Sequence record: NC_055708.1
Strand: one strand, 5' to 3'
DNA from: Enterobacteria phage ATK47
DNA length: 64,000 nucleotides
Shown here: piece by piece, positions 1 to 49,100 of the stretch
Layout: each line of letters opens with the position of its first letter
Position numbering within the stretch: position 1 is the stretch's first letter
Made by a program: the position numbers and the translations under genes
Notes under the pieces: generated by a model
Seen by the model: only the letters and a program-made list of their open reading frames with translations
What the model was told of the DNA's origin: nothing
The model's database searches: none

Positions 1-14
1 TGCTCTTCCGATCT
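1..14. other. Illumina TruSeq-type adapter remnant (ends GCTCTTCCGATCT)
   Basis: Bases 2-14 are an exact 13-mer match to the 3' end of the Illumina universal adapter; lies at the very start of the window. Confidence 0.6.
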
Positions 15-734
15 GTTTCTGTTGCCTTTTTAGCTGCTTTAGTGGCAGCAGAAAAGGCTGCAGAAACTAAAGCAGCTAAAAAGGCAACTAAAGCTAAGGT
101 TCATAAGCATATTAAAGCTAACCAATGTGGTAAAGATGCAGATACGACATTGTTCTTAACAGAAGGTGATTCGGCAATTGGATATCTCATTGATGTTCGT
201 GACCGTGAACTACATGGTGGATTCCCATTACGTGGTAAGGTAATGAATAGCTGGGGTATGTCATATGCCGATATGATGAAGAACAAAGAGCTCTTTGATA
301 TCTGTGCTATCACAGGTCTTATTCTTGGTGAAAAAGCAGAGAATACGAACTATCGTAATATTGCAATTATGACCGATGCCGATCATGACGGCCTTGGAAG
401 TATTTATCCTGCTTTGCTTGCTTTCTTTAGTAATTGGCCTGAATTGTTTGAACAAGGACGTATTCGCTTTGTTAAAACGCCTGTAATTATTGCACAAATT
501 GGTAAAACTCAAAAATGGTTTTATACTGTAGCTGAGTATGAAGAAGCTAAAGATACGCTGCCTAAGCATAGTATTCGATACATCAAGGGATTGGGCTCCC
601 TTGAAAAGTCAGAGTATCGTGAAATGATTCAGAACCCTGTGTACGACGTAGTTAAACTTCCTGAAAATTGGAAAGAACTCTTTGAAATGTTGTTGGGTGA
701 TGATTCAGAACTTCGTAAAGAATGGATGTCCTAA
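15..734 (+). CDS. 39: DNA topoisomerase II large subunit, C-terminal part (Toprim region; gene-60-equivalent segment fused in frame); 5' end outside window
   Basis: Frame is open to the window start; Toprim motif IMTDADHDG; C-terminus ...LRKEWMS matches recalled T4 gp60; no interruption of the frame. Confidence 0.9.
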   Translation, partial: VSVAFLAALVAAEKAAETKAAKKATKAKVHKHIKANQCGKDADTTLFLTEGDSAIGYLIDVRDRELHGGFPLRGKVMNSWGMSYADMMKNKELFDICAITGLILGEKAENTNYRNIAIMTDADHDGLGSIYPALLAFFSNWPELFEQGRIRFVKTPVIIAQIGKTQKWFYTVAEYEEAKDTLPKHSIRYIKGLGSLEKSEYREMIQNPVYDVVKLPENWKELFEMLLGDDSELRKEWMS

Positions 735-749
735 GCTCCTTCGGGAGCT
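734..749 (+). terminator. UUCG-type stem-loop (agctccTTCGggagct) downstream of gene 39
   Basis: Perfect short inverted repeat with TTCG loop followed by T-rich tract. Confidence 0.45.
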
Positions 750-776
750 TCATTTTAATTTTAATAAGGCTTAATT

Positions 777-1877
777 ATGAAAGTTATGTTTATCCCATCT
801 CGCGCAGTCCCATTTAACCCAGAACGTGTACAAGGTGGTCTTGAAGCAGTACATTTAAATGTGTTGAAATATCTTGTGTCCATCGGTGCTGATATTGATT
901 ATATCGGCTTTGATAATGACACGTTTGGTGACTGGAAGGTTAATCATCATCCTGTTGGTCATCTGACTAAATTCAGTCTAGGTATGAGTTATACTATGGC
1001 TCGTAAGATTGTTGAACTAGCCGGCATTAATGAGTACGATTTCGTTGTTACAATGGAACCGACTAAACTAACCGTTCAGGCAATTAAAGACGCAGGTCTC
1101 TCTAAAGTTCATAAGAATTTTATGGCAACACCATTTGAACCGGTATCTCGTGGCATTGTTCAAATTTGGGACCAGACTATTCAAATTCATAAGAATGGTG
1201 GTAAGAGCTATGCTCCTACTAAAGCCTTCCGTGAATTTGAACGTAAATATTGTTATATGACTTCAGGTCTGACTGACAAAATTGATTATGATTATTGGCG
1301 AGCAAATCCGTTGTTTGAAGCCGAAGATTATCCGGTTATTTGTTTGAATGAGAAACCTGAAGTTCTTCCGGCGACTGATCTGATTATTAGTGCACAACGT
1401 TATGACACTAAAATGCGTCGTACTGATGTTGCTCTTGAAGCGATTAAAGCACTAGGCGAAAATGGTGTAGGATACTGTCCTAGTAAATGGGCACCACCGG
1501 CTAAGTATCCTGTTATTATTGATGCTCCACACAGTGAAATCATGGAACGTCTTAAAACAGCTAAAGCACTTATCAATACGTGTCCTGACACGGGTACGGT
1601 AGAGAATAGTTCTATTGAAGCCATCTCTAAAGGTGTCCCTGTGATTCAGTTAGTTTTTAAGGATTATCCGCACGCGACATTCGAATATGACCCAGATACT
1701 GTGCGTGTAGAAATTGATTCCTCTACTCCTAAGAAAGAAGTAGTTGCGCTTTACACAAAAGCTGTATTAGAATTCACTGACACATACGAAGCTCGAGTTA
1801 AACGTGCTGAAGCAGTATGGAAGAAGTATAACCGAGATGCGGTTGTTGCGATGTGGGATAAAATCTTCACAGCGTAA
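777..1877 (+). CDS. Putative GT-B fold glycosyltransferase (candidate DNA sugar-modification enzyme)
   Basis: N-terminal MKVMFIPSRAVPFNPERVQGGLEAVHLNVLKYL resembles GT-B/GT4 N-terminal donor-domain signature; C-terminal ENSSIEAISKGVPVI resembles the E-x7-E-like GT1/GT4 motif; RBS taagg upstream. Assignment by motif only. Confidence 0.45.
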   Translation: MKVMFIPSRAVPFNPERVQGGLEAVHLNVLKYLVSIGADIDYIGFDNDTFGDWKVNHHPVGHLTKFSLGMSYTMARKIVELAGINEYDFVVTMEPTKLTVQAIKDAGLSKVHKNFMATPFEPVSRGIVQIWDQTIQIHKNGGKSYAPTKAFREFERKYCYMTSGLTDKIDYDYWRANPLFEAEDYPVICLNEKPEVLPATDLIISAQRYDTKMRRTDVALEAIKALGENGVGYCPSKWAPPAKYPVIIDAPHSEIMERLKTAKALINTCPDTGTVENSSIEAISKGVPVIQLVFKDYPHATFEYDPDTVRVEIDSSTPKKEVVALYTKAVLEFTDTYEARVKRAEAVWKKYNRDAVVAMWDKIFTA

Positions 1878-1969
1878 ATCCTGAATCGCCTGAGGCACTA
1901 TTACACATAAGATGATAGATTATATGGTCTTTAGTAATAGTGCCCTAGGAATCTACTGAAGAGAATATT

Positions 1970-2170
1970 ATGAGAACATATAACGTGGACTTGGAACTTT
2001 TTGATAAAGCAGTGCTCCGGGAATTCCGGCTTATCCAAAGATTTTTTGATATCGAATCAGCAGAGTCCTTTAAAGAACGCTTTAAAGAAATTCGATATAA
2101 AATACAAACCGATACAGCTACTAAAGAAGAACTTCTTGAAGTAGCAGAAATTTTTAAACGTAACTTGTGA
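1970..2170 (+). CDS. Hypothetical small protein (rIIA-upstream)
   Basis: 66-aa ORF, same strand as neighbours, AT-rich RBS region; no recognisable motif. Confidence 0.4.
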   Translation: MRTYNVDLELFDKAVLREFRLIQRFFDIESAESFKERFKEIRYKIQTDTATKEELLEVAEIFKRNL

Positions 2171-2182
2171 TGAGAGAAAAAT

Positions 2183-4396
2183 ATGATTATTGAAACGGCT
2201 AAAGAAACGATTATTGGTTCAGGCGGTAAGAGCACAGCATTCACTATTCAAGGCAATAGCAAAGTTTATAAGATTTTGTCTAATGACCTTTATACAAACA
2301 AAGAATTGGCTTGTGTACGTGAATTAATCACAAACTGTATTGATGGACAAATTCTTAATGGTTGCACTGATAAGTTTATTGTTCAGGCTCCAGGTCGTTT
2401 AGACCCACGTTTTGTAGTTCGAGACTTTGGTCCTGGTATGAGTGATTTCACCATTAGAGGTAATGACGAAGAGCCGGGAATCTATAACTCATATTTTGCT
2501 TCAACTAAAACATCGAGTAACGATTTCATTGGTGGATTCGGACTCGGCTCTAAAGCTCCGCTAGCATATACCGATACATTTAACCTTACGTCTTATCACA
2601 ACGGTGAAGTTCGTGGTTACGTAATCTACCAAGATGACACAGGTCCACAAATTAAGCCGACCTTTGTAGATAAGATGGGTCCTGATGACCGTACGGGTGT
2701 AGAAGTAGTCGTACCGGTTAACCCGGAAGATTTTGAAAAGTTCGCATCCGAAATTGCATATGTTATGCGTCCTCTAGGTGATATTGCAGAAGTTCGTGGT
2801 GTTAAAGATATTAAATACTTCCCTGAATTTGACGATGTATATTTGGCCAAGGAAGCTCCATGGGGTGAACGCGGTAATATCATGGCTGTTTACGGTGGTA
2901 TTGTATATCCAATCGGAAGTGTTATTAAAGAACAAACATGGATGATGACTCGATGCACCACAGCTTATATTAAATTCCCTATGGGTGAACTAGACGTAGC
3001 TCCGTCTCGTGAAGCATTGTCATTTGATAAACGTACAGTAGCAAATATCCATAAACGCGTTGCAGAAATCGATGCTAAATTGTTCGCTGAAGATTCTAAG
3101 AAATGGATTGATTGTAAATACCCACGTCATGTGTTCCGTGAAATTGATTCTCTTGGTTATACCGCTCGTAAATACATGGAAAAGGCCGGGTCTAATATTG
3201 AATCACTGAAATACTCTAAAGAACAACTAACTTATTCTGAGTTGTACAAACGTTTTAAAATGGGGCCCGGATGGTGTAATCTTGGCGTTGTATACGATAT
3301 CGTTGAATCCCCTCGTCTTCGTCGTATTCGTGAAAGTGGTAGCTCATCGGCAACTATTTCAATTAACAGTCTGATTGGCATTAACATTAAAAACGTTGAA
3401 ATTGTTATTGACGACGTTAAGGGACGCGTTCCATTAATGCGAGCTCTTAATTCAATTGAAATGTCTAAAGACGAGGTTAAATTAACTGGTAAAGTTCCAC
3501 GCGGTTTTGGTAAAAGCGTACTATTCGTTGACCCTACAGACGAAGATGCAATGAAACTTCTGGAACGCCTTAAAGTTATCTTTGATGGCGACAACATTAA
3601 CATGTACAAGACTTCAGAGCTTTTACAAATCGTTAAGCCATGGATTGAAGTCAGGAAACGAACTAATGAGCCTCGTCCTAAATCGCCAAGTGCTCATCGA
3701 TTCTTTAAGAATGAAAACGATGTTTGGGTATCAGAAGACCTCTTTATTCCGGCAAGTGAAGCAGATGAAATCCAAGGTTATGCTATAGTTCGTAATCGTT
3801 CTAATGCTGAATGTCTTGACGCAGATAAAGGTTGGTTGAACTATGACTCCAATTTCTTGACCCGTATTGCTGATTTGTCAGGTATTAAAGAGTTCACTGT
3901 AGTTCGTCCACAGATTGCTAAGAAAGTTCGTAAACTTGGTGAAGTAGAATGCTTGTTCGAAAAATCTATTAACGACTATATTACGCTAATCGATAAAGTG
4001 GATTATGATGAGTATGTATCACCAAGTCGTAGAGCACAACCTTATTTGAATCATATTACTCGTAATGAAGAGCTTAACTTCCTTAGTAAGTATTTTAGCT
4101 CTAAAAACAAAGAAATCAGTAAAGATTTTGCAAAACTCTCAACAGTAAATAATCGTTGGGGATGGAATCGATTCTCAGGTGCTACTAACAGAGAACTGAA
4201 TAAAAAGTTAGAATTGTGTGCTAAAATTTTCGATAAGCTTAAAGATAATGCTTACGATAATGATGATAAAATGGTTATTGAATTCGAAACCAATTATCAT
4301 ATTGTGTCAGACTACATGGGACGACGTGGTACTCTTTCTAAAGAACAAGTCGCTCAAATCGTTAAATTCATGAAGGCCGTGGAAGCGGCCAAATAA
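2183..4396 (+). CDS. rIIA: rIIA protein (GHKL-type ATPase-like N-terminus)
   Basis: 737 aa; N-terminal ...NKELACVRELITNCIDG... and GGFGLGSK glycine motifs typical of GHKL ATPase fold; size and position (after gene 39, before rIIB) as in T4. Confidence 0.85.
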   Translation: MIIETAKETIIGSGGKSTAFTIQGNSKVYKILSNDLYTNKELACVRELITNCIDGQILNGCTDKFIVQAPGRLDPRFVVRDFGPGMSDFTIRGNDEEPGIYNSYFASTKTSSNDFIGGFGLGSKAPLAYTDTFNLTSYHNGEVRGYVIYQDDTGPQIKPTFVDKMGPDDRTGVEVVVPVNPEDFEKFASEIAYVMRPLGDIAEVRGVKDIKYFPEFDDVYLAKEAPWGERGNIMAVYGGIVYPIGSVIKEQTWMMTRCTTAYIKFPMGELDVAPSREALSFDKRTVANIHKRVAEIDAKLFAEDSKKWIDCKYPRHVFREIDSLGYTARKYMEKAGSNIESLKYSKEQLTYSELYKRFKMGPGWCNLGVVYDIVESPRLRRIRESGSSSATISINSLIGINIKNVEIVIDDVKGRVPLMRALNSIEMSKDEVKLTGKVPRGFGKSVLFVDPTDEDAMKLLERLKVIFDGDNINMYKTSELLQIVKPWIEVRKRTNEPRPKSPSAHRFFKNENDVWVSEDLFIPASEADEIQGYAIVRNRSNAECLDADKGWLNYDSNFLTRIADLSGIKEFTVVRPQIAKKVRKLGEVECLFEKSINDYITLIDKVDYDEYVSPSRRAQPYLNHITRNEELNFLSKYFSSKNKEISKDFAKLSTVNNRWGWNRFSGATNRELNKKLELCAKIFDKLKDNAYDNDDKMVIEFETNYHIVSDYMGRRGTLSKEQVAQIVKFMKAVEAAK

Positions 4397-4405
4397 GGAA
4401 ACATT

Positions 4406-5353
4406 ATGTACAATATCAAATGCTTGTCCCAAGAAGAACAGTTAGAAGCTTACGGCCTGGTTGAATCAGGCAAATGGACTCGTAAAGAAATTGCCGATTA
4501 CTTCGACATTTCAACAGATACTCTTCGTAAGATTGTTAAGAATTTTAAAGCAGAAGGCGTTGTCCCTGAAGCAAACGATGCCTCTTATGTAATCGAAGAA
4601 GTTCCAGAAAATGATGAACCTATTATCGGCGGACATCGTCCTGAAATCGTATGGAACGCGTCATCTAAATTTATTTCAATTATTGAAGGACGCGTAGCAT
4701 ACAATGCGACTCCATCAAGTCATGCAAATTTTGAAGAAATTAAAGCTAATCTGGTCGCAGGAAACCTTAGTAAAGCTGTCGAACTTATTAACATCAAGAA
4801 AGCTATTAGTAAGTTTGTTGATGGTAATGTTACTATTGAAGGTGGTAGTTTATTTTATCAAGGTATAGAAATTCGTTCAGGACTGGTTAATCGTATTATT
4901 GATTCCATGGAAAAAGGCGAAGACTTTAAATTCTATCTGCCGTTCCTTGAAAACCTGTTAGAAAACCCAAGCGAAAAAGCTGTACAACGTTTATTCGACT
5001 TCTTGGTTGCAAATGATATTGAAATCACTGAAGATGGGTATTTCTATGCGTGGAAAGTAGTTCGTAAAGACTATTTAGATTGTTATAGCGGTACATTTGA
5101 TAACTCACCAGGTAAAGTTGTTTCAATGCCTCGTACTCGTGTTAACGATGATGATACACAAACCTGCTCCCGTGGTTTACATGTTTGTGCTAAATCATAT
5201 ATTCGTTACTTTGGTTCTAGCTCAGATAAAGTTGTTAAGGTTAAAGTTCATCCACGCGATGTTGTATCCATCCCGGTTGACTACGGTGATGCTAAGATGC
5301 GTACTTGTCGTTATGAAGTAATTTCAGACGTTACTGAATTATTTGCAGAATAA
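4406..5353 (+). CDS. rIIB: rIIB protein
   Basis: 315 aa immediately downstream of rIIA, same strand; size and synteny as T4 rIIB (approx 312 aa). Confidence 0.7.
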   Translation: MYNIKCLSQEEQLEAYGLVESGKWTRKEIADYFDISTDTLRKIVKNFKAEGVVPEANDASYVIEEVPENDEPIIGGHRPEIVWNASSKFISIIEGRVAYNATPSSHANFEEIKANLVAGNLSKAVELINIKKAISKFVDGNVTIEGGSLFYQGIEIRSGLVNRIIDSMEKGEDFKFYLPFLENLLENPSEKAVQRLFDFLVANDIEITEDGYFYAWKVVRKDYLDCYSGTFDNSPGKVVSMPRTRVNDDDTQTCSRGLHVCAKSYIRYFGSSSDKVVKVKVHPRDVVSIPVDYGDAKMRTCRYEVISDVTELFAE

Positions 5354-5358
5354 TAATT

Positions 5359-5380
5359 GGGGACTTCGGTCCCCTTTTTT
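5359..5380 (+). terminator. Intrinsic terminator ggggacTTCGgtcccc + T6
   Basis: Perfect 6-bp stem, UUCG tetraloop, followed by tttttt. Confidence 0.7.
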
Positions 5381-5394
5381 CTTTAGGGGTAATT

Positions 5395-5682
5395 ATGATT
5401 CATCCATTTGACGTATCAGAATCCAAAATTGCTAATCTTCGTGGTCATCATAAGTGTAAATCAGTTTATTGTGCTAAATTGGTAAAACATCCTGGTGATG
5501 CACACTACGGCTGGTTAGAATGCGACGAAGTTGTTAATGAAATTCCACCTGTAGATGCTAACTATCTTGAAGAAGGAGACCGCATTTATTTTGGCGAACT
5601 ACACATCAGAGGTATCTATGGTAAAGACGAACTTGGGATTGTTGAGACTGAAGAGTCTTCCGACATTTATCCTGTCGAATGA
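5395..5682 (+). CDS. Hypothetical protein
   Basis: 95-aa ORF with RBS aggggt 7 nt upstream of ATG. Confidence 0.45.
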   Translation: MIHPFDVSESKIANLRGHHKCKSVYCAKLVKHPGDAHYGWLECDEVVNEIPPVDANYLEEGDRIYFGELHIRGIYGKDELGIVETEESSDIYPVE

Positions 5683-9150: not shown

Positions 9151-9226
9151 GTGCCCTAGCCTTAGGATTTCTCGGTGCAATAGCTGTACTAGTGATTTGG
9201 CTGTATTGGTTGGACAAACATGATTA

Positions 9227-9247
9227 GGGAGCTTCGGCTCCCTTTTG
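9227..9247 (+). terminator. Intrinsic terminator gggagcTTCGgctccc + TTTTG
   Basis: Perfect stem with UUCG loop and T-run. Confidence 0.7.
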
Positions 9248-16919: not shown

Positions 16920-17582
16920 TTAATAATAGCCGAAATCTTGAACAGAATCTTTAATTACAATCTGGTCGAAACGAGGAACATGATTAGCCTCAGACGCCGG
17001 ATTCTGTGAGAAAAAGTTTGGTGCTGTTAAAGTACCAGTCATGGTATCGCCAGAACGCAATACACGGGAATTTGCGTTATCCATAACAGTATTTATTCGT
17101 CCATCAACATAATCTTTTCTTGTGAGATCATTAACTGCAACTGGAGCAACTGCATTACTTCTTATTTGACCTACTGCTGTCACAACGCCTTTTGTACTAA
17201 TATCACCATTACGTGCATTAATTACAACAGTTCGGTCTGCCGAACCTTGTGATGATTTAAAACCAATACCATTCCACGAAACGATGTCAATATTTGCCAT
17301 AGCAAAAGTAGCTGCATCACCGTTACCTGGATAAACACCGCACTGTTGACTACTACCTACAGTAGGAACATGTACGCCTCCATTAAATCGAACAGTTGCA
17401 GCGTAAGTACCACCATTTGCTTTAGAAACGAAATCGTTATCAGCAGCTTGTGGTTTATTATATTCTGAATAGAGTTTAAACGTTTTATACAGGACGTCAT
17501 CACCTGCTGGCATTAAAGGGAAATTACCTTGGTGCCATATAACGGCACCGCCAGTTGTACTACCAGCTTTTAAATCGGCCAT
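16920..17582 (-). CDS. 36: Long tail fiber proximal-distal connector gp36
   Basis: 220 aa, between 35 and 37 as in T4. Confidence 0.65.
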
Positions 17583-17606
17583 AGTTGTCTCCTTATATGT
17601 ATACCA

Positions 17607-17614
17607 TATTTATA
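17607..17614 (-). promoter_or_regulatory. Late promoter TATAAATA (minus strand) upstream of gene 36
   Basis: Plus strand reads TATTTATA, i.e. TATAAATA on the coding strand, about 25 nt upstream of the gene 36 start. Confidence 0.5.
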
Positions 17615-17621
17615 CAAAAAT

Positions 17622-17639
17622 GGGAGACCGAAGTCTCCC
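17622..17639 (-). terminator. Stem-loop gggagacTTCGgtctccc (minus-strand sense) after gene 35
   Basis: Perfect 7-bp stem with UUCG loop, followed by T-run on the minus strand. Confidence 0.6.
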
Positions 17640-17644
17640 TAAAT

Positions 17645-18772
17645 TTATTCTGATGCTTCTTTAAATTCTTGTCCAAATACCTTACCAGTATCAGTTGAAG
17701 ATTGAGTAGGTAATGTCATTATGTCTGGAGCACTTAAAGATTCTGAAACATAATTTACACGAATACCATTTATACCAAACTCAGCAGGTTTTGAAACGCT
17801 TCCATTACATGATACTTCAGTGAATATAACGTTTCTTAATCCACCTTGCCCGGCTGGAGCTGTACGATAACAATAAATTGTGAACCCGTCAGCACCAGTA
17901 GGAATTTCTACGTAGTCTTCATATATCTTCCATTCACCTGCAGCCCCATCAAAGTTTGTATCCTTAAATGAAATAGGTGAAGTAGAAGGAGATTTAAAGA
18001 AACGAATAGAAAGTCGTGTCGTCCCTTGTGCTAACAAATCGGCATCAGCCATTAGTTGGAATTTCATATAAAGGAAATCTCCAGGCTTCAATTTATACCC
18101 AGCGAGAGGTGTAATAATGGACGTTGTAGGCATCCTTTTAATTTCGTTATTAGTACCTCCAACAGCAGATAAAAATGTGTCTGACGATTCATACGTACGT
18201 CTAGGGAAGCCGGTCGCACCAATATCATCGATCGTGTCGTACACAACATCAAGTGGTGTACTATAGTCGGTTGAAGTTTTCTTATTACTATACTTAATAT
18301 GTTCTAGCGCTATAGCATTCTTACCAGAAATATAAAATGCCGAATAAGAAATGTCCACTATATTTAAAACTTGTTGAGCTAATGGAATAGCAGAACTTCC
18401 GGCTTTATTAAACCATGCAAGAACTTCTGGTGGAAAGTTTGTTTTAGCGTTAGTAACAAGAGCAAATATAAAATTTGAAGCATACGTGTCCATGAAAGTA
18501 ACAAATGCACTTGACGTGGCGTCGTTTTCAGTAGAGAAATTATATGACTTAGATTCAATTACTGCACCTGTTGTAGGATTTATTACACGAACGTTTAATC
18601 CAACAGAAAAAACCTGGGACCCAAGTGGATTATCTTGGAACTTAATATAAGCAGGAGATGTTGATAGCGGACAAGAGCCCGCTATGCTTAATTTAAATCG
18701 TACTGAATTGCTTTCCGATAAAAATGGCGTTTGGACGTATCCTTGTCCAAACTTAGCCATAAATTTTTCCAT
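17645..18772 (-). CDS. 35: Long tail fiber hinge protein gp35
   Basis: 375 aa, between 34 and 36 as in T4. Confidence 0.65.
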   Translation of the reverse strand: MEKFMAKFGQGYVQTPFLSESNSVRFKLSIAGSCPLSTSPAYIKFQDNPLGSQVFSVGLNVRVINPTTGAVIESKSYNFSTENDATSSAFVTFMDTYASNFIFALVTNAKTNFPPEVLAWFNKAGSSAIPLAQQVLNIVDISYSAFYISGKNAIALEHIKYSNKKTSTDYSTPLDVVYDTIDDIGATGFPRRTYESSDTFLSAVGGTNNEIKRMPTTSIITPLAGYKLKPGDFLYMKFQLMADADLLAQGTTRLSIRFFKSPSTSPISFKDTNFDGAAGEWKIYEDYVEIPTGADGFTIYCYRTAPAGQGGLRNVIFTEVSCNGSVSKPAEFGINGIRVNYVSESLSAPDIMTLPTQSSTDTGKVFGQEFKEASE

Positions 18773-18780
18773 AATACCTC

Positions 18781-21700
18781 TTATTCAATCCACTCGAATT
18801 TAACAGATTTATTCACAGGGTCTGGAATAATGCGGACATTACCAATCCTTAAGAAATCCCTTATTGTCAAGTTTCCGATTGTTGCATTATCAGAAGGTAA
18901 AGCACCAATATCAGATGGCTGAGGAGGGTTTCCACCATCAAATACTTGAACAAAACTTGACCAAGAATTTTTAGTTTTCTGCCATGTACGAGTCCAACGG
19001 GTTGTACGTGCTTCTGGGGTTGTTGGATAAGTAATCCAATCTTGGTAAAGTGAATCAAGTGTGTTACCAAACTGAGTCAGTGTACCAGGAGATTTAACTT
19101 CTTCGCCACGTTCTAAGTATGGAAGCCCAGTCACTTCATTAGTTTTTTCAACCATTTTAAAATAACCTGGGAACTGGTTATAAGTGGCTGAATCGTTAAT
19201 ATCAATTGACCAGAATCCTACATTATCAGATGTTGGCGCACGGGTATATAAATCGGATGTTTTAGTACCTTGAGAACGAATTCTCGAGTTAACAGTTAAA
19301 CCACCTGAATTTATAGTAGCACCTTTGGCAATGATTAAGCCTTCACCAATCGTTACTTGGCCAGATGCATTATTAATAGCCAAAGGACGTAATCCATTAA
19401 ATCCACCGGTCTGATCACCGGATGCAGTGAGCATAAAATAGGTATTAGCAGCATCATTACGAATAAAGAATCCGTAATCACCACTAATTGCTCTGAAAGC
19501 ATTTGCTGACTTGCTGATGAATTCACCATTAGCAGTAACTGAACTACCAAATGTTGCAACGCCGTTCGCGTTCAAAGAACCCGAAGCGTTAACATTTATC
19601 GGCATCACAGTACCGTTAATGCTAAACGTTATATTCCCGGCTTTATTACGTTGAGAATAAAAGTGATTAGATGTTTCATCACCAACTTCAAATACAGTAG
19701 AACGTGTTGTATCTGAACCACCACCAAATTCATTTCCACAAACTCTGATAGTCATCGTCTGTGCTGGGTTAGTTCCAGTTTGAGGTCCTTTCTCAAAAAT
19801 AAGACGAGTTGCCGTTCCAGTATTAGAAATAGTTAATGTACTATTTGCCGAAACTGAACCACCAAACGTAGCAGTACTAGATGATACAAGAGGGGCACTC
19901 AGATTCGTTTGTTGGGTTAAGGTTAGTGAACCATTAACCGTCTGTGCAATGTCCCTACGAATGAACTGAGATGAATCTAGACCATCTAATAAATTTGCGT
20001 CAGCAGCTTTTGCTTTTAATGGCAAGTAATTTGCTAATACACGGTTTAATTCATACGGTGATACTGCATAGCTATTTTTCTCGTATAGCTCTAAGTTTTG
20101 TGTTGAACCAACTGTATCATTACCAACGAATGTAATAGAACCGGATGAAGTTTTAACGAATCCACGAATTGCTGTAGTAGCAGCCCATGTTGGTTCATTC
20201 TGGACAATCCATTTTAAATTCTTAGGAGATACAGCAGTATTAGCAGAAGTTCCTGTTATAGTTTCAGCCTGAGTAGCAACCTTAATTACGCCTTCAGACG
20301 TTTCAGTGGACTTAGTCCCTAAAAGCTTTTTAGGAGTAATAAGAACATCATCTAAAGTTCCTGCATTAGATTCTGCCTGAGTCGCTACGCGAAGTGTACC
20401 ACGTTGTGTTTCATTTGCTTTAGAAATATCAAGAGTATAATGGTTCCACAAGGTTCCTTCTTCAATAAGTCCGGAATCAGAATTAACACTGGTACGGTCA
20501 GAAGAATCAAAATGAGTTTTAATTTTCAGTGGAGTCGAGATACGAGTATCATCAGTTCCAGTATCAAATTCAACTTGCGTAGCAATTTCGGCTATGCCGG
20601 ATAATCCTTCCGTAGCTTTCCTATCATTTAATGTCTTAGGCGTTACTGCTCTAGTATAATCAGTCCCAGCATTAGTTTCTGCTTGCGTAGCAATTTCAAT
20701 TAAGCCAATACGTCCATCAGTAGAAGTTTTCTTATGTAGTGTTTCAGGAGTTACTACAGCATGAGAATAACCTGCTTGAGATTGACCAGCAATTACTTCA
20801 CTATCAACAGCTAAAATTACTGCACCTTGTTGAGCATAAGTTGCTTTATATTGGTCAAGGGCTTTAGGAGAAATAGTTAAATTATTTACGGTTTTATTAT
20901 AAACGTTAGTGCCTGCGGCCCCACGAGTTTCAGCAGGAGTAGCAGAAGTAGTTGATACATATTTAACTATACCAGATAGTGTTTCAGAACCCTGACGTGC
21001 CTGCAATTTCTTAGGTGTAATAATCGTTGTGTCATCAAGACCGGCGTCAGTTTCAGCCTGAGTAGCAATTTCAGCAAGACCACGACGAGTTTCAGTTGCT
21101 GTACGCTCATTTAATTTTTTAGGCGTAACAATAGTATCGTCCACAAATGTTGCTGTGGAATTCTGGTTAACTTGTGCTGTTGTAGCAATTTTAGCGATAC
21201 CACGTCGAGCTTCAGTTGCTGTACGATTTGCCAACGTTTCAGGAGTAATAGCCACTTCTTTAGCTGGAGTATTCTCTAAATCAACATTTGCTTGCGCTTG
21301 AGTAGCAAGAGCAATAACACCTAAACGAGCTCGTGTAGCATCAGTTCCAGCATCGACACGTTCTACAGTTGGGACGTTTTGTTGAACAACCCAATAACGT
21401 GTACCAGCAACGGTGTCTTCGATATACGCTAATTCTAATACAGGAACATATGAAGTAGTGCCATTGAATTCTAGTTCAGTAACAGAGACCCATTGAGCAT
21501 CAGGTGGATATTCAGAACGTTTAGGGAACTGAAGCAATGCAACAGTGGAAGCAATTGTATCACCTTCGGCAGCTTTAATTTTTACTGTTTGGCCTTTACG
21601 CATGTAGTTCATTGAAATTTTAACAGTGTCACCACTCAAAATTCCGGTAGGCAGCGTAAGATTAATAGTTCCGGTTGTAGCGTTATTTGTGCCAAAGATA

Positions 21701-22656
21701 AGAACTTCTTCATTTGGACGAATATTTGAATCCGCACGGATAATACGAAGACGCGATTTCTGGTCGCCTTCCCATATACGCCATAAACTATTTGCAGCAT
21801 CAAAAACAAAAAACGCGTCAGAGTCATTTCTGCCTTCGGCAATATGAGTCCCGACTTCACCAATAGACGTTGTATCATCAAATGTTTTAACAATTGTATG
21901 ATACAGTGGGTTTAATTTATCTAAATCGACTAGGCTGATTATATCACCATTGTTAGCATTACGTGGAAGTGTAATGTTGATTGGTGCTGCACTAGTAAAA
22001 CGACGAACGATAAAATCATTTGCTTGTGCTTGATATGGTGTCGCAGGTGTAACAGTGATTGATTCTTTACCATAATCGGTAATATACATCTGCCACAAAC
22101 GATTACTAAACACAAACAATAGTTGTGAACGTGGGCGCGTCATTAAAACTGTACGAACTTGTTCACCTCTAAAGTTTAAAATACTCTGCACAGACGCGTT
22201 AATCTGTACTTTAACTGTCCCAGTTCTTCCACCAATATCAGCCAAAACAACAGTATCACCATCAACCGGCGCATTTGGCAACGTGAAAACCATATCATTA
22301 CCGGCACCAGTGTTAACCGAAATCGATTCACCTGAAGAAAGTTGATAAGTCCCAGAAGCGACAGTTATCCATTGTGCGTCAGTACGAACTGCACGCCATT
22401 GTAAAAGGTTAAATGCCCCGGAAGGAGACACGATATCATTTATTGCTTGATATAAACGATTGTCATAAAGAACAACAAATCCTTTGTTATATCCACGCGT
22501 AGAATCATATACTTGAACGGTGTTTTCTTGTACCAGGAAGTCAACGTTTACGCCATCAGTACCTACTGTACGGTCGGCTAATGCTACGTTAACAATCTTG
22601 TCGCCACCGGCGTCCAGACCGTCTTCGGCTCTGAACTTACGTTTGATGTCGGCCAT
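18781..22656 (-). CDS. 34: Long tail fiber proximal subunit gp34
   Basis: 1291 aa; repeated ...RRGLAEIATQAET... fibre-repeat motifs; size as T4 gp34. Confidence 0.85.
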   Translation of the reverse strand: MADIKRKFRAEDGLDAGGDKIVNVALADRTVGTDGVNVDFLVQENTVQVYDSTRGYNKGFVVLYDNRLYQAINDIVSPSGAFNLLQWRAVRTDAQWITVASGTYQLSSGESISVNTGAGNDMVFTLPNAPVDGDTVVLADIGGRTGTVKVQINASVQSILNFRGEQVRTVLMTRPRSQLLFVFSNRLWQMYITDYGKESITVTPATPYQAQANDFIVRRFTSAAPINITLPRNANNGDIISLVDLDKLNPLYHTIVKTFDDTTSIGEVGTHIAEGRNDSDAFFVFDAANSLWRIWEGDQKSRLRIIRADSNIRPNEEVLIFGTNNATTGTINLTLPTGILSGDTVKISMNYMRKGQTVKIKAAEGDTIASTVALLQFPKRSEYPPDAQWVSVTELEFNGTTSYVPVLELAYIEDTVAGTRYWVVQQNVPTVERVDAGTDATRARLGVIALATQAQANVDLENTPAKEVAITPETLANRTATEARRGIAKIATTAQVNQNSTATFVDDTIVTPKKLNERTATETRRGLAEIATQAETDAGLDDTTIITPKKLQARQGSETLSGIVKYVSTTSATPAETRGAAGTNVYNKTVNNLTISPKALDQYKATYAQQGAVILAVDSEVIAGQSQAGYSHAVVTPETLHKKTSTDGRIGLIEIATQAETNAGTDYTRAVTPKTLNDRKATEGLSGIAEIATQVEFDTGTDDTRISTPLKIKTHFDSSDRTSVNSDSGLIEEGTLWNHYTLDISKANETQRGTLRVATQAESNAGTLDDVLITPKKLLGTKSTETSEGVIKVATQAETITGTSANTAVSPKNLKWIVQNEPTWAATTAIRGFVKTSSGSITFVGNDTVGSTQNLELYEKNSYAVSPYELNRVLANYLPLKAKAADANLLDGLDSSQFIRRDIAQTVNGSLTLTQQTNLSAPLVSSSTATFGGSVSANSTLTISNTGTATRLIFEKGPQTGTNPAQTMTIRVCGNEFGGGSDTTRSTVFEVGDETSNHFYSQRNKAGNITFSINGTVMPINVNASGSLNANGVATFGSSVTANGEFISKSANAFRAISGDYGFFIRNDAANTYFMLTASGDQTGGFNGLRPLAINNASGQVTIGEGLIIAKGATINSGGLTVNSRIRSQGTKTSDLYTRAPTSDNVGFWSIDINDSATYNQFPGYFKMVEKTNEVTGLPYLERGEEVKSPGTLTQFGNTLDSLYQDWITYPTTPEARTTRWTRTWQKTKNSWSSFVQVFDGGNPPQPSDIGALPSDNATIGNLTIRDFLRIGNVRIIPDPVNKSVKFEWIE

Positions 22657-25942: not shown

Positions 25943-25964
25943 GGGAGACTTCGGTCTCCCTTTT
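25943..25964 (+). terminator. Intrinsic terminator gggagacTTCGgtctccc + TTTT
   Basis: Perfect 7-bp stem, UUCG loop, T-run. Confidence 0.7.
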
Positions 25965-39799: not shown

Positions 39800-40097
39800 T
39801 ATGATTTTAACTGAACGAGAAACTATGGTTCTTCGTGAACGTATTAAAACTATTCTGTCTGTAGGCGTTCATTGTGTTGTATTTGAAAAGGCTAACGGTG
39901 ATGTACGCACTATGTTTGCTTCGCGCGATGAACTTGAAGTCAAATATGAAAATAACAATCCGGCAACAGAAGTTCGTTATGAACCTCGTGAATCAGTTCG
40001 AGCATTCGATACCAAGTTAGGCCAGTGGCGTTCTTTCCGCCTTGATAAAGTAATTTCGGTTGATGGTACTCCGGTAGAACGTTTGCTTCTTATGTAA
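39789..40097 (+). CDS. Hypothetical protein
   Basis: About 100-aa ORF between cd and 31. Confidence 0.45.
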   Translation: MVNNMILTERETMVLRERIKTILSVGVHCVVFEKANGDVRTMFASRDELEVKYENNNPATEVRYEPRESVRAFDTKLGQWRSFRLDKVISVDGTPVERLLLM

Positions 40098-40154
40098 TAT
40101 GCTTTACGAATAGTATGGTATTATTAATCTATCGTCAAACAACAAGGAAATAAG

Positions 40155-40487
40155 ATGTCTGAAGTACAACTCCCAATTCGTGCTGTTGGTGAATATGTCA
40201 TTCTGGTTTCTGAACCCGCTCAAGCAGGTGATGAAGAAGTTACCGAATCAGGACTTGTGATTGGTAAACGTGTTCAAGGTGAAGTTCCTGAACTATGCGT
40301 AGTTCATTCTGTAGGTCCTGATGTTCCTGAAGGTTTTGTTGAAGTCGGTGATTTGACTCCACTACCAGTTGGACAAATTCGAAATGTTCCACATCCATTT
40401 GTGGCTTTGGGACTTAAACAACCTAAAGAAATTAAACAGAAATTCGTAACATGCCACTATAAAGCTATTCCGTGTCTTTATAAGTGA
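40155..40487 (+). CDS. 31: Head assembly co-chaperonin gp31 (GroES-like)
   Basis: 110 aa (T4 gp31 111 aa), position after cd. Confidence 0.7.
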
Positions 40488-40611
40488 TATAAATAACTAT
40501 ATGAAGAGAACACTCTTCTAAGCGGTAGCCTACAACTGAGAGACTTGTCGAAAGAAGGTGAAATTCAGACGAACGTGGCTACTAAATATTATCTCGAATT
40601 GAGAATTTAAA

Positions 40612-40860
40612 ATGATTAAACAATTACAACACGCTCTTGAACTGCAACGCAACGCATGGAATAACGGTCACGAAAACTACGGCGCTTCAATTGATGTTGA
40701 AGCCGAAGCACTGGAAATCCTGCGATATTTCAAACATCTGAATCCTGCTCAGGCTACTCTGGCTTCTGAACTGGAAGCTAAAGATGAATTGAAATATGCT
40801 AAGCCTCTGGCTTCTGCAGCACGCAAAGCAGTTCGTCATTTTGTTATTACCCTTAAATAA
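40612..40860 (+). CDS. Hypothetical protein (82 aa; size and position compatible with rIII, unverified)
   Basis: 82-aa ORF with RBS ttgagaa; T4 rIII is 82 aa and lies between 31 and 30. Confidence 0.4.
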   Translation: MIKQLQHALELQRNAWNNGHENYGASIDVEAEALEILRYFKHLNPAQATLASELEAKDELKYAKPLASAARKAVRHFVITLK

Positions 40861-41154
40861 GTTTTAGGTGATTCGCTACCTTAGTGCGGCTAGAAAATCG
40901 AGGAGCCGTCGAACTGTCTGATTAATGATTTGCGAATCATTATAGTTTTAAGACCCCGGCAGTTTTACGGTGTACCTCTTGAATGTATTTTATACTATCA
41001 CGCGTCAGAAAAAGGTTATCTGTCTAAGTCGTGGTTGGTATGATGACGGGTTTATGGTTATCCTGTCGTTAAATATCCAAAACCTATGTTCCCCTTGAGG
41101 GCTTGCGCAGGCAATGTCAATAAGTCCTGCATTTTCATTTAAAGAGAATTTATA

Positions 41155-41334
41155 ATGGCAAAACAAGCTAAAGCAAAGAAAGCAGTTGAAAAGAAAGTTG
41201 ATGGTACCTCTAAACGCGCTGGATACAAGCGTGGGTCGAACTCTCGTATTAATCAAACAGTTGAGAAGATCATGCGCAGAGCACGTGCAGTTCTTCGAGA
41301 TGATGCTTCTCGTTTTGGAAAGGTTGTTGCATAA
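41155..41334 (+). CDS. Small highly basic protein (59 aa)
   Basis: ATG 41155 after aaagagaa; Lys/Arg-rich translation MAKQAKAKKAVEKKVDGTSKRAGYKRGS...; followed directly by a UUCG terminator; below ORF-track cutoff. Confidence 0.4.
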   Translation: MAKQAKAKKAVEKKVDGTSKRAGYKRGSNSRINQTVEKIMRRARAVLRDDASRFGKVVA

Positions 41335-41339
41335 TTTTA

Positions 41340-41361
41340 GGGAGACTTCGGTCTCCCTTTT
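41340..41361 (+). terminator. Intrinsic terminator gggagacTTCGgtctccc + TTTTG
   Basis: Perfect 7-bp stem, UUCG loop, T-run. Confidence 0.7.
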
Positions 41362-41393
41362 GTGCGTTTAGGGCAGAAAAAGTTTAAAAAGAT

Positions 41394-41422
41394 GTTTACT
41401 CTCCTGTAGGATGTGTTACTAT
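41394..41422 (+). promoter_or_regulatory. T4-type early promoter
   Basis: GTTTAC 41394-41399, 17-nt spacer, TACTAT 41417-41422. Confidence 0.5.
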
Positions 41423-41464
41423 AGACTTGTACCATCTAATCAATAAAACAACCTGGAGAACAAA

Positions 41465-41833
41465 ATGAAAATCAATCTGAACTCATACATCAAATGTAAA
41501 GACCATGACGGTTATAAAGCTATCGAAATTAAAGAATTCCAGTGGATGTTATACAAAGAGCAATTTGAGTTCGTAGGTTGTATGACCCCTGAAGGTCCTT
41601 CTGATGATTTCTCTTGGAAAATTGTGTTAGCAAACTTTTTCACAGGTGACACATACGAATTAAAAACTATTATTACCGGTAAAATTCGTTCAGAAACATA
41701 TGTTGACGAAGAAACTGGTTACTCTGAAGATGTTACATGGTATCAAAATGGACGCATTACAGCAGATAACCTGATCGAAAAAATGAAAGCCAAAGGTGTT
41801 TTAAATTTAGACAATTGGATTAAAGTTGCATAA
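41465..41833 (+). CDS. Hypothetical protein
   Basis: 122-aa ORF with ggag RBS downstream of early promoter. Confidence 0.5.
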   Translation: MKINLNSYIKCKDHDGYKAIEIKEFQWMLYKEQFEFVGCMTPEGPSDDFSWKIVLANFFTGDTYELKTIITGKIRSETYVDEETGYSEDVTWYQNGRITADNLIEKMKAKGVLNLDNWIKVA

Positions 41834-41837
41834 AACA

Positions 41838-41877
41838 GTTTACTTTGGTACAGGTTATGTTATTATAGACCTGTACC
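41838..41877 (+). promoter_or_regulatory. T4-type early promoter with 8-bp inverted repeat ggtacagg/cctgtacc bracketing TATTAT
   Basis: GTTTAC 41838-41843, TATTAT 41861-41866. Confidence 0.55.
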
Positions 41878-41907
41878 AACAAACAACTTAAACATCCGGA
41901 GAATAAA

Positions 41908-42273
41908 ATGAACTACACCAACTTCGAACGCAAATATGTTTCTAACGGTATCGCTGGTTCTTCTGAAGTTATTTGCTTATGGAAACACGAAAACGGTACA
42001 GTTTGTGAAATCGAACAGTGCATGACTCCTAATTATGTTTATATGCGATTTGAAAATGGCATCACGGTTTCAATCACGATGGAAGGTTCAAATTTTAAAA
42101 TTGCATTAGATGATGATTTCCGTCAGCGCGATTTAGGTACTCATCCTTGCTGGAATGGTGTTAATCGTAAACTTCTGGTTAAAACCTGGATTCGTCATAT
42201 CCTGAGTAACCGAGCTAAACCTGAACATCTCGAAGCAATCTTTGATGTAGTTCTTAACGAATTTGATATCTAA
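41908..42273 (+). CDS. Hypothetical protein
   Basis: 121-aa ORF with ggag RBS. Confidence 0.5.
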   Translation: MNYTNFERKYVSNGIAGSSEVICLWKHENGTVCEIEQCMTPNYVYMRFENGITVSITMEGSNFKIALDDDFRQRDLGTHPCWNGVNRKLLVKTWIRHILSNRAKPEHLEAIFDVVLNEFDI

Positions 42274-42280
42274 TTTAACT

Positions 42281-42296
42281 GGGAGCTTCGGCTCCC
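42281..42296 (+). terminator. Stem-loop gggagcTTCGgctccc
   Basis: Perfect stem with UUCG loop; weak T-run. Confidence 0.5.
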
Positions 42297-42308
42297 ACTG
42301 AGGAAATT

Positions 42309-42923
42309 ATGTTTAAAGTTAATACTTTTTATAAAATGAATTTTAAAAATGGGGATATTACTCCACGCCTTAAAAACATGTTCTCATATGACCTTATCGA
42401 GCCTTTTGAAGTTTTAGAAGTTACTGATGCCGGCTCAGTTTGTGAAATTAGAACTTCTGAAGGTAAAATTTATCAGGCAGGTGTTGGTAAATTCAGTAAT
42501 TGTTTTACTTTAATATTCTCGACCGATTTAGATGAGCATTTTATTGAATGTCCTAACCCTAAGGTCCATGAAGTTCCATGGAAAGAAACTAAGAAAAATG
42601 GACCGCATGAATACACGAAGGTTGAAACTCCTCACGGCGATATGTGGCGTCATAACTCTCCTTTTGGAAGTAAAGGAACATTTGCTCAACTGCCTAAACC
42701 GTATGACGATGAAAAATACATCGTCGCCTTTTTATCTGAACAGGGTACTCAAGACCGTGGATGCCAAAGAAGTGGTTTACTAAGTGAACTTGAAGCTCAT
42801 AACCAAGCACGTGAATTCGTTGAGAAAAATCCTGGTTCTGAAGCTCTAGTCATGAAAGCAGTTACTCAATATATCACTGCTCAACCTATTGTTCATCCGG
42901 TAGAAATTAATTTCATTAAGTAG
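42309..42923 (+). CDS. Hypothetical protein
   Basis: 204-aa ORF, RBS gagga. Confidence 0.5.
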   Translation: MFKVNTFYKMNFKNGDITPRLKNMFSYDLIEPFEVLEVTDAGSVCEIRTSEGKIYQAGVGKFSNCFTLIFSTDLDEHFIECPNPKVHEVPWKETKKNGPHEYTKVETPHGDMWRHNSPFGSKGTFAQLPKPYDDEKYIVAFLSEQGTQDRGCQRSGLLSELEAHNQAREFVEKNPGSEALVMKAVTQYITAQPIVHPVEINFIK

Positions 42924-42953
42924 TTTACATCCAAGGACGGATTAGAGTATAAT
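42923..42953 (+). promoter_or_regulatory. T4-type early promoter
   Basis: GTTTAC 42923-42928, TATAAT 42948-42953 (spacer about 19). Confidence 0.45.
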
Positions 42954-42977
42954 GATTTCTTTAGTAAGTGGAAAAAT

Positions 42978-43175
42978 ATGAAATTTTTAATAGCACAAAC
43001 AGTCCAATTAAAAGGTGTTGGAATTCCTGGGGTGATTTTTAAAGTTCTCCCTGAATTTAAAACCGCCGCTGGAATTATCAATGAAGCGTATGCTGTTCAA
43101 TGGGTTGATTGGACTTCTGACATACGTATGGGTAAAGAGTTATCTCCTATTAAAGGGTTGAAACATGTTGAATAA
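42978..43175 (+). CDS. Hypothetical protein
   Basis: 65-aa ORF. Confidence 0.4.
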   Translation: MKFLIAQTVQLKGVGIPGVIFKVLPEFKTAAGIINEAYAVQWVDWTSDIRMGKELSPIKGLKHVE

Positions 43176-43377
43176 ATTAATCCAGAAATTGTTAGGTACA
43201 GAAATGATCGAAGTTACTTATCGTGTAACTGACTGCTCGCCTATTCATCCACAGGATGAACCATTTATCAAGACAATTAAAATGCTTAAAAATGACGGTG
43301 GTTTATCTATTGAAGACCGTCTGCCTAGTTACGGCCATTGGGCTGATGTTGAAATTATAAGTGTTAAAGATGTCTGA
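43165..43377 (+). CDS. Hypothetical protein
   Basis: 70-aa ORF. Confidence 0.4.
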   Translation: MLNKLIQKLLGTEMIEVTYRVTDCSPIHPQDEPFIKTIKMLKNDGGLSIEDRLPSYGHWADVEIISVKDV

Positions 43378-43828
43378 ATTAGAAATAAGAAGTAATTTCA
43401 AGTGGCCGTCATGTGCATTAAGTAACTTTGCTCAATGGCCTTTTGTTATGGATGGTATTCAATTCGGAGGTCTTGAAGGATTTCTCCAAGGATGTAAGGT
43501 GAAAAATGTTGAACAACAAAGACGTATATTTGGGTTGTCTGGATTGGCTGCACAGCAAGCTGGAAGGTCTTATGCAAGAGCTCAGGACCGTGGAACTCTC
43601 TTCTGGTTAGGAGTTCCGTTTTCAAGATACTCCGAAGCGTGGAAAGAATTATACACAAATGCATATTTTGAAGCCGCGATCCAAAATAAGGGGTTTCGTG
43701 ATGCCTTACAAGCCTCTAAAGGAAAAATTTTGAAGCACAGCATGGCTAGCCACCTAACAAAAGATGATACAATACTAACTGAAGCTGAATTTATTGATGT
43801 GTTAAACCTATTAAGAGACTCTTTATGA
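43361..43828 (+). CDS. NADAR-like (YbiA/DUF1768 family) protein
   Basis: 155 aa; ALSNFAQWPFVMDG closely matches the SNFAAWP...DG core of E. coli YbiA / NADAR domain (recalled). Confidence 0.5.
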   Translation: MLKMSELEIRSNFKWPSCALSNFAQWPFVMDGIQFGGLEGFLQGCKVKNVEQQRRIFGLSGLAAQQAGRSYARAQDRGTLFWLGVPFSRYSEAWKELYTNAYFEAAIQNKGFRDALQASKGKILKHSMASHLTKDDTILTEAEFIDVLNLLRDSL

Positions 43829-44640: not shown

Positions 44641-44649
44641 GGGATACTT

Positions 44650-44919
44650 ATGTTTGTAGTTCATGATATTACAGATGGCAAAAACACCACACGTGACTAC
44701 GGTCACGTTAACATGTTCTTTCGAGACTGGCCATTGTTTCGTTCAGTAAAAGACGCAGAAATATTTAAAGAGTGTGTTGAACAAGGGTTCATCTACATTT
44801 CAGAATACTATGTTGAAGGACTCGGTAAATGGATTACCACTTATCAGAAAACGCTGAAATCGCTTCTAGATGAAGTGGCTTATAATAGAACCGTAACCAA
44901 AATCGAGGACATCAAATGA
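44650..44919 (+). CDS. Hypothetical protein
   Basis: 89-aa ORF coupled to ligase gene. Confidence 0.45.
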   Translation: MFVVHDITDGKNTTRDYGHVNMFFRDWPLFRSVKDAEIFKECVEQGFIYISEYYVEGLGKWITTYQKTLKSLLDEVAYNRTVTKIEDIK

Positions 44920-46409: not shown

Positions 46410-46597
46410 TGAAAGCTTATTTAGAAACAGTTATTGTAGCTAAGAAGGATGGTGGAGATGTTTCCACCTCTTGCTCTCAGATTATATTAGATTTTCCTAA
46501 TGAAAATTCGTATCGGGTTTTCGTAGATAACGTTAATGGGTACGAAAAAGGCCCTAATTTTGAAGTTTATCGTACTTTGCTCCCGATTGTGGATTAA
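46388..46597 (+). CDS. Hypothetical protein
   Basis: 69-aa ORF overlapping ligase 3' end. Confidence 0.4.
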   Translation: MVPDRFIMKAYLETVIVAKKDGGDVSTSCSQIILDFPNENSYRVFVDNVNGYEKGPNFEVYRTLLPIVD

Positions 46598-46617
46598 GAG
46601 CCTTCGGGCTCTTTTTG
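46597..46617 (+). terminator. Intrinsic terminator agagccTTCGggctct + TTTTT
   Basis: Perfect stem, UUCG loop, T-run. Confidence 0.65.
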
Positions 46618-46652
46618 GCATAAATATAAATTATTACTAAAAGGAAAACACT

Positions 46653-48769: not shown

Positions 48770-48798
48770 CATCCCATCAACAACATGAGGAAAACGTT

Positions 48799-49092: not shown

Positions 49093-49100
49093 ACCCCTAA

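Follow-up and report, generated by a model that had tools for sequence, protein, structure and literature searches.

The 64,000-nucleotide (nt) stretch of Enterobacteria phage ATK47 (sequence record NC_055708.1), referred to below as the window, was analysed for the function of a 366-amino-acid (366-aa) open reading frame (ORF) at 777..1877 on the + strand, between topoisomerase gene 39 and rIIA. The gene encodes a GT-B glycosyltransferase, and its product probably adds the second arabinose during hypermodification of the phage DNA, as an enzyme dependent on a uridine diphosphate (UDP)-sugar, as judged from sequence comparison and genome context. This role was favoured over the earlier proposal of a first-sugar transferase because of the full pathway in the genome, the phyletic nesting of the gene, the membership of its homologs in modification clusters and its relationship to the other transferases. 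The gene, the fold and the proposed role are already known from publications, and a crystal structure has been deposited.

RB69 DNA was reported to hold arabinose in place of glucose, and ORF003c (366 aa) was nominated as the RB69 arabinosyltransferase according to GT-B evidence from hidden Markov models (HMM) and HHpred (Thomas et al. 2018, PMC6024577). The modified base in RB69 was later identified as 5-hydroxycytosine (5hoC), with 5-hydroxy-deoxycytidine monophosphate (5-hydroxy-dCMP) made by a flavin-containing ThyA homolog, RB69 gp48; mono- and di-arabinosylated forms were both found in RB69 DNA, the disaccharide being beta-D-Araf-(1->3)-alpha-D-Araf-O5-dC (Araf, arabinofuranose; dC, deoxycytidine), and a third Araf, in beta-(1->5) linkage, was found to be added in Acinetobacter phage DLP3 (Lee et al. 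2026, PMC13326640). In the same study, the role of first transferase was proposed for RB69 gp46:47 and that of 'beta-arabinosyltransferase 2' for gp3, and DLP3 gp76 and gp77 together added a third arabinose to RB69 DNA with UDP-Araf in vitro. The second-arabinose role was proposed for the gene between rIIA and the topoisomerase gene (PMC13326640, PMC13390438), and Mosigvirus NP carries the same two modifications as RB69 (Durham Collection paper, PMC13390438). According to the papers that cite them, the Mosigviruses Bas46 and Bas47 are doubly arabinosylated and an arabinosyltransferase named 'Aat' was deleted in Bas46 (Mahler et al. 2025), and a pathway named 'Afh' and structures were described for phage HY126 (He et al. 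2026).

Fold and family placement of the product

The ORF at 777..1877 begins with ATG, and its N- and C-terminal sequences match exactly those quoted in an earlier reading of the letters alone (the sequence-only reading), in which a 366-aa ORF with resemblance to GT-B enzymes had been placed between gene 39 and rIIA. It is a real gene, because its protein is matched by PHROG 8302 (labelled 'unknown function') over residues 1-366 with an E value of 7.6e-223, is present at no less than 95% identity (>=95%) in 154 phage records and differs among its copies mostly by synonymous changes. The ratios of synonymous to nonsynonymous codon changes were 60:11, 54:18, 25:4, 29:1 and 25:3 against the copies in ESCO47, AV114, RB69, phiC120 and HX01, respectively, and third codon positions held 65 of the 79 nucleotide differences from the ESCO47 copy.

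A comparison with RB69-type glycosyltransferases had been suggested. The protein is 98.9% identical to RB69 ORF003c/gp3 (NP_861693.1) and, over its whole length, about 98% identical to the protein in PDB entries 9IQZ (apo) and 9IR0 (with UDP), entitled 'phage HY126 glycosyltransferase' and released on 2025-07-16. A literature text search with the two PDB codes returned only unrelated text matches. RB69 ORF003c/gp3 and the HY126 glycosyltransferase have the same length, the same slot between gene 39 and rIIA.1 and the same flanking hairpin and stem-loop, and they differ from the present protein only by 4-8 amino-acid substitutions, none of which suggests another function.

Sequence scans alone could not place the family, so that fold comparison and one hhalign bridge were needed. 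A Pfam scan of the protein gave no family at E <= 10, an NCBIfam scan gave no match, and the only matches of phmmer and of the family profile among PDB sequences were 9IQZ and 9IR0. The family is tiny and isolated: it forms 10 clusters in a set of 5.8 billion proteins and has 12 representatives in one of 1.84 billion (E <= 1e-10 for 10 of the 12). An AlphaFold2 model built with an 11-sequence family alignment had a mean predicted local distance difference test score of 90.7 and a predicted template-modelling score of 0.87. The protein is made up of two Rossmann-like beta/alpha/beta domains, between which lies the active-site cleft, and binding of a nucleotide-sugar donor is indicated by the title of the 98%-identical 9IR0 entry, which names UDP. 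The gene thus encodes a GT-B glycosyltransferase on the basis of the solved structure, the model and the fold searches, and the two-Rossmann fold that had been expected from structure prediction was recovered by both the model and the fold searches.

A marginal homolog, P0016, passed the Pfam Glyco_transf_4 profile (31.9 bits against a cut-off of 28.5), and hhalign aligned the family profile to it over the full length with 97.9% probability. The 366-aa protein itself stays below the profile thresholds of CAZy GT4 and of Pfam Glyco_transf_4 and Glycos_transf_1, the alignment to P0016 being the only link and an indirect one. The N-terminal donor-binding signature that had been pointed out is borne out by the GG loop typical of GT4 enzymes (G20-G21-L22), which is invariant in 11 of 11 family members; Q207-R208 and R214 are invariant or nearly so. 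The C-terminal segment that had been pointed out, 'ENSSIEAISKGVPVI', aligns with the GT4 donor-binding motif. At the site where P0016 carries the canonical E-T-F-G-I-S-N-F-E (E-x7-E), the family motif is T-G-T-V-E276-N-x-S-x-E281-A-I-S-x-G-x-P-V, beginning at T272 and with its proline at P288. The position of the first glutamate (Glu) of E-x7-E is occupied by T or G and an invariant E276 follows three positions later, giving E-x4-E, while the second Glu (E281) and the donor-binding helix A-I-S-x-G-x-P-V are conserved.

Retaining GT4-type enzymes (BshA, PimA/PimB', MshA, WaaG and sucrose-phosphate synthase) have in common with the family the two-Rossmann GT-B fold, the N-terminal GG loop, an Arg/Arg-Lys pair and the 'E-A-x-x-x-G-x-P-V-I' donor-binding helix. 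In contrast, identity to them is only 10-15%, the canonical first Glu is lacking in the family, the acceptor proposed for the family is a sugar on DNA, and the product linkage is beta. The GT-B call is correct, and strict GT4 membership of the protein is not established. In a fold search of BFVD, the closest viral neighbours beyond the family (ranks 4-7) were glycosyltransferases of the T4-like Rhizobium/Sinorhizobium phages RL2RES and phiM9, with template-modelling scores of 0.66-0.76. In Rhizobium phage RL38J1, 5-hydroxycytosine is glycosylated with hexoses (Lee et al., PMC13326640).

Pathway genes and phyletic distribution

The window at 43..5400 and 40000..64000 is 100% identical to Enterobacteria phage ATK48 (KT184310.1) with a single consistent offset, and the pathway genes that lie outside the window were read from the record of ATK48, a Mosigvirus of the RB69 group. 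At 72418..78971 of ATK48, about 21-27 kb upstream of the window start, intact copies of the full arabinosylation pathway are found, namely genes for an arabinose-5-phosphate isomerase, a 561-aa nucleotidyltransferase/kinase, a HAD phosphatase, a gp50-like protein, the ThyA homolog, a 299-aa transferase and a nucleotide kinase. The ThyA homolog carries the RSQN (D169N) signature and shares 99% identity with RB69 gp48. The genome thus holds the 5-hydroxy-dCMP synthase, the UDP-Araf pathway and the first transferase together with a gene that is homologous over its full length to the family of RB69 gp3, the HY126 glycosyltransferase and DLP3 gp76-77 (PHROG 8302). In the ATK48 record, the 561-aa nucleotidyltransferase/kinase and the 299-aa first transferase are left unannotated (17236..18921 and 21523..22422 of ATK48 56000-104000, respectively), and the 5-hydroxy-dCMP synthase homolog is mislabelled 'deoxycytidylate 5-hydroxymethyltransferase'.

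Members of the 299-aa transferase family occur in 347 phage records from many genera, and their gene practically always adjoins that of the ThyA homolog, with Escherichia, Klebsiella, Enterobacter, Serratia, Proteus, Yersinia, Edwardsiella, Pectobacterium, Erwinia, Pseudomonas, Shewanella (phage Thanatos) and Acinetobacter as hosts. The family of the 777..1877 gene was found in only 210 phage records, comprising 154 Mosigvirus records with one copy each (>=95% identity) and 56 records at about 42% identity, of which 55 are from Acinetobacter phages (two copies in every one listed) and one is named Tegunavirus. Within Mosigvirus, the records with the 299-aa transferase and with the 777..1877 family are practically equal in number (152 and 154, respectively). 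Shewanella phage Thanatos was reported as mono-arabinosylated with a single transferase, and di- and tri-arabinosyl DNA were reported in Mosigvirus and Acinetobacter phages, respectively; the copy number of the family (0, 1 or 2) tracks the one, two or three arabinoses reported. The record named Tegunavirus carries a family member of <60% identity, which suggests that poly-arabinosylation may also occur outside Mosigvirus and Acinetobacter phages.

The protein is 43% and 40% identical over the full length to DLP3 gp77 and gp76, respectively, and no similarity to the 299-aa transferase was detectable. DLP3 gp77 and gp76 (arabinosyltransferases 2 and 3) belong to the same family, share its invariant motifs and act on arabinosylated 5hoC DNA with UDP-Araf; they differ in being two paralogs that are active only together and add the third arabinose (beta-1,5), and in being encoded inside the modification cluster instead of in the slot between gene 39 and rIIA.1. 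In both DLP1 and DLP3, the two homologs come right after the genes of the kinase, the first transferase and the ThyA homolog. On an unrelated metagenomic contig (L013), the genes of a first-transferase homolog (48% identity) and of the kinase (48%) lie in succession, and the start of the former is overlapped by the gene of a 41%-identical homolog of the 777..1877 protein. Another metagenomic homolog, P0009, lies at the end of its contig, which comes from a T4-like phage (DNA ligase, DsbA).

Proposed role and alternative explanations

In the proposed pathway, the flavin-dependent ThyA homolog would hydroxylate dCMP to 5-hydroxy-dCMP, which would then be incorporated into DNA, and the first transferase, a 299-aa protein from the cluster that lies between gene 43 and uvsX, would put alpha-D-arabinofuranose on the 5-hydroxyl. 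The 777..1877 product would then use UDP-Araf to place a second arabinofuranose on O3 of the first one, giving beta-D-Araf-(1->3)-alpha-D-Araf-O5-deoxycytidine as the end product on the DNA. The bulkier disaccharide may shield the DNA further from nucleases and alter which host defences see it. The present analysis contributes to this scheme the fold, the orthology, the genome context and the phyletic pattern, and work of others contributes the chemistry of RB69 DNA, the chain extension on DNA by the Acinetobacter co-orthologs and the binding of UDP, as named in the PDB title; from these we infer that the second step is carried out by the 777..1877 protein and that its gene is transcribed by read-through from gene 39.

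Several points weigh against the assignment of the second step. RB69 gp3 was labelled putative, experimental confirmation having been obtained only for DLP3 gp76/77 and the ThyA homologs, and neither DLP3 gp76 nor gp77 was active alone (Lee et al. 2026, PMC13326640). For Mosigvirus, it has to be assumed that one family member works by itself. Structurally, the closest relatives belong to the retaining GT4 enzymes, yet the first and second linkages are opposite in anomeric configuration, and the canonical first Glu of E-x7-E is absent from the family.

The 2018 proposal for RB69 ORF003c would make the 777..1877 product the first, base-proximal arabinosyltransferase on the modified cytosine. ORF003c was chosen for its HMM/HHpred similarity to glycosyltransferases (Thomas et al. 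2018, PMC6024577), and the first step is not biochemically assigned, because no single DLP3 transferase, the presumed first one included, acted on 5hoC DNA in vitro (PMC13326640). This explanation is nevertheless judged unlikely: the pathway is common without the 777..1877 family (347 against 210 records) and mono-arabinosylated Thanatos has a single transferase; it is the 299-aa transferase that adjoins the ThyA homolog essentially always; the copy number of the 777..1877 family follows the reported number of extra arabinoses; and its co-orthologs extend sugar chains on DNA that is already arabinosylated. The joint requirement for DLP3 gp76 and gp77, both members of this family, would also suit a product that serves as subunit, accessory protein or scaffold in a transferase complex (the 299-aa transferase being a possible partner) and has no catalytic step of its own. 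This is regarded as quite improbable, as the donor-binding and catalytic-site residues (the GG loop, R208, R214, E276 and E281) do not vary within the family, UDP is bound in the solved structure, and only one family member is present in Mosigvirus.

The acceptor of the product might not be DNA at all but a host or phage protein, a lipid or a small molecule, as could be suspected from the best structural matches outside the family (BshA, PimA, MshA, WaaG and a tetrahydrobiopterin glucosyltransferase), which act on small molecules, lipids or lipopolysaccharide, and from the distance of about 21 kb between the Mosigvirus gene and the modification cluster. The embedding of homologs in the DNA arabinosylation cluster in two other lineages, the restriction of the family to phages with the arabinosylation pathway and the action of the co-orthologs on DNA in vitro make such an acceptor very improbable. 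An alpha-glucosyltransferase acting on DNA like T4 a-gt, the identity suggested by the annotation of HX01 (NC_018855) and of many Acinetobacter phage records, has hardly any probability left. The T4 enzymes a-gt and b-gt, likewise GT-B enzymes of phage origin, use a UDP-sugar to modify hydroxylated cytosine once the DNA has been replicated. Homology to T4 a-gt together with glucose transfer, by which an a-gt-type enzyme would be recognized, does not apply to the 777..1877 product, and this identity was rejected as refuted for practical purposes.

With the second-arabinose role preferred, the DNA sugar transferase (glucosyl or arabinosyl) of the sequence-only reading is retained as arabinosyl and dropped as glucosyl, the evidence being the RB69 literature. 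Hydroxymethylcytosine, the base assumed there, is replaced by 5-hydroxycytosine in this lineage, in which the ThyA homolog is 99% identical to the RB69 5-hydroxy-dCMP synthase. The gene had also been said to set the restriction-evasion phenotype; it would most likely put a sugar on a sugar, and so tune the modification instead of setting it alone. On the whole, that reading was essentially right on the fold and broadly right on the function, outdated on the base and probably wrong on the step, and it made too much of the flanking hairpins.

The labels of the orthologs in public records are inconsistent, with mostly 'hypothetical protein' and few 'glycosyltransferase' entries. The label 'DNA alpha-glucosyltransferase' stands in RefSeq HX01 (NC_018855) and in many Acinetobacter phages, and 'ATP-binding protein' and 'GDP-mannose-dependent alpha-(1-2)-phosphatidylinositol mannosyltransferase' stand in JQD51 and 308Ecol101PP, respectively.

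Stereochemistry of the transfer

In the RB69 product, the first sugar is linked as alpha and the second as beta (Lee et al. 2026, PMC13326640). The alpha and then the beta linkage would presumably be made from the same UDP-Araf donor, which requires inversion by one of the two phage transferases, both of them GT4-like. The AmgK/MurU-like kinase-uridylyltransferase that makes this donor would suggest UDP-alpha-D-Araf, and with that donor the inverting enzyme would therefore be the 777..1877 product. It is tentatively put forward, as a possibility held at somewhat less than even confidence, that the product is an inverting beta-arabinofuranosyltransferase on a GT4-like, normally retaining scaffold, for which the displaced invariant Glu276 would be a candidate catalytic base.

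Neighbouring genes and flanking hairpins

The glycosyltransferase gene, an ortholog of RB69 ORF003c/gp3 and of the HY126 glycosyltransferase, is preceded by the 3' part of gene 39 at 42..734 (+), which encodes an unsplit topoisomerase II large subunit of the '60plus39' type according to the ORF list and the annotations of ATK48 and RB69; in the Mosigvirus lineage, the gene 60 part is fused into gene 39, as stated by the RB69 annotation '60plus39'. A Shine-Dalgarno-like AAGG was read from the sequence at 766..769 (+), 7 nt 5' of the ATG. Downstream, rIIA.1 (66 aa; 1970..2170, +), rIIA (2183..4396) and rIIB (4406..5353) were located with the ORF list and the ATK48 annotation. The T4 gene order is 39 - mobA - 60.1 - 60 - rIIA.1 - rIIA, and gene 60, mobA and rIIA.1 had been rightly described as T4 genes of this interval, but rIIA.1 is present here as well. 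The first 42 positions of the window (1..42) are not phage sequence. They consist of an Illumina adapter tail (TGCTCTTCCGATCT) and, after it, a copy of window 67..94 that is folded back in reverse complement (25 of 28 bases match); they are an assembly artefact at the contig end, and the ATK48 sequence differs there.

Both flanking elements that had been described as bracketing a cassette, the upstream UUCG hairpin and the downstream 11-bp inverted repeat, are present. The upstream C(UUCG)G hairpin (AAGCTCC-TTCG-GGAGCTT, with a T-rich tail; 733..750, +) overlaps the stop codon of gene 39 and was recognized as intrinsic-terminator-like by the terminator scan, by its fold and in the ATK48 annotation (ARNold terminator); it is conserved among six Mosigviruses. 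TTCG-loop hairpins whose stems have 5 bp or more (5-8 bp) number 15 in the window, and 11 of them are C(TTCG)G hairpins, most of these 11 with T-rich tails. The 15 sites include those at 5359..5374, 9226..9243, 25943..25960, 41339..41358, 46596..46613 and 61063..61080, and such hairpins are the standard terminator style of this phage. The hairpin at 733..750 is no mark of a cassette, because it is one of about 15 of its kind in the window, and it reads as a predicted T4-type terminator of gene 39. It is probably leaky. A promoter scan gave nothing on the + strand at 629-888, and thus no promoter-like site between the hairpin and the ATG; the glycosyltransferase gene is therefore probably expressed by read-through from gene 39.

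The downstream inverted repeat has 16-nt arms at 1889..1904 and 1934..1949 with an 11-bp perfect core and a 29-nt loop, and forms a conserved stem-loop (1889..1949, +) in the 92-nt spacer before rIIA.1. Its RNA fold has an energy of -29.5 kcal/mol (z = -3.8), and none of 200 shuffles was as stable. The stem-loop is conserved in six Mosigviruses and is not followed by a T tract; among these phages, two substitutions improve the pairing, one keeps a G-U pair and one breaks a pair, which is not enough variation to judge covariation. Reading the downstream spacer by eye revealed no convincing sigma-70, MotA-box or late-promoter sequence. The stem-loop, which sits where RB51 has an early-type promoter, is probably an element that acts at the mRNA level.

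The variable slot between gene 39 and rIIA.1

The description of the gene as cassette-like holds in one respect, that T4-like phages vary in what they carry in the slot between gene 39 and rIIA.1, and fails in another, that the hairpin is an ordinary terminator and the G + C content of the gene equals that of its flanks. The slot of T4 holds mobA, 60.1 and the split gene 60. In RB51, GiZh and other Tequatroviruses, it holds only 54 nt with an early-type promoter, TTTACT...TATAAT (RB51 locus 738..793), and in JS98 (735..1324) it holds a hairpin, two small unannotated ORFs, a terminator hairpin and a promoter-like sequence. In the Mosigviruses phiC120, AV114 and p000v, a 265-aa homing endonuclease lies between gene 39 and the hairpin (phiC120 locus 638..1435; AV114 locus 1..658; also p000v). 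The last bases of gene 39 (TGGATGTCCTAA) recur at the 3' end of the endonuclease gene, and gene 39 gains a new C-terminus, …DWMLG*, the pattern that an insertion right at its end would be expected to leave.

Homology with the phages whose slot is 'empty' ends at the stop codon of gene 39 and resumes at about the ribosome-binding site of rIIA.1. The transferase module with both stem-loops appears to be an old, fully ameliorated insertion in a plastic region, apart from the rest of the pathway, because the slot is variable, homology breaks at its edges and the G + C content equals that of the flanks. A recent horizontal acquisition of 777..1877 was considered and set aside, as the equal G + C content gives it no compositional support.

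Significance

The practical value of the analysis is mainly corrective and concerns the database labels of the 777..1877 orthologs and of the ThyA homolog. The sugar decorations on cytosine decide which restriction, CRISPR and glycosylase defences can attack a phage, and they matter for the choice and the engineering of therapeutic phages. The 777..1877 gene sets the di-arabinosylated Mosigviruses apart from many relatives that seemingly have the first transferase only.

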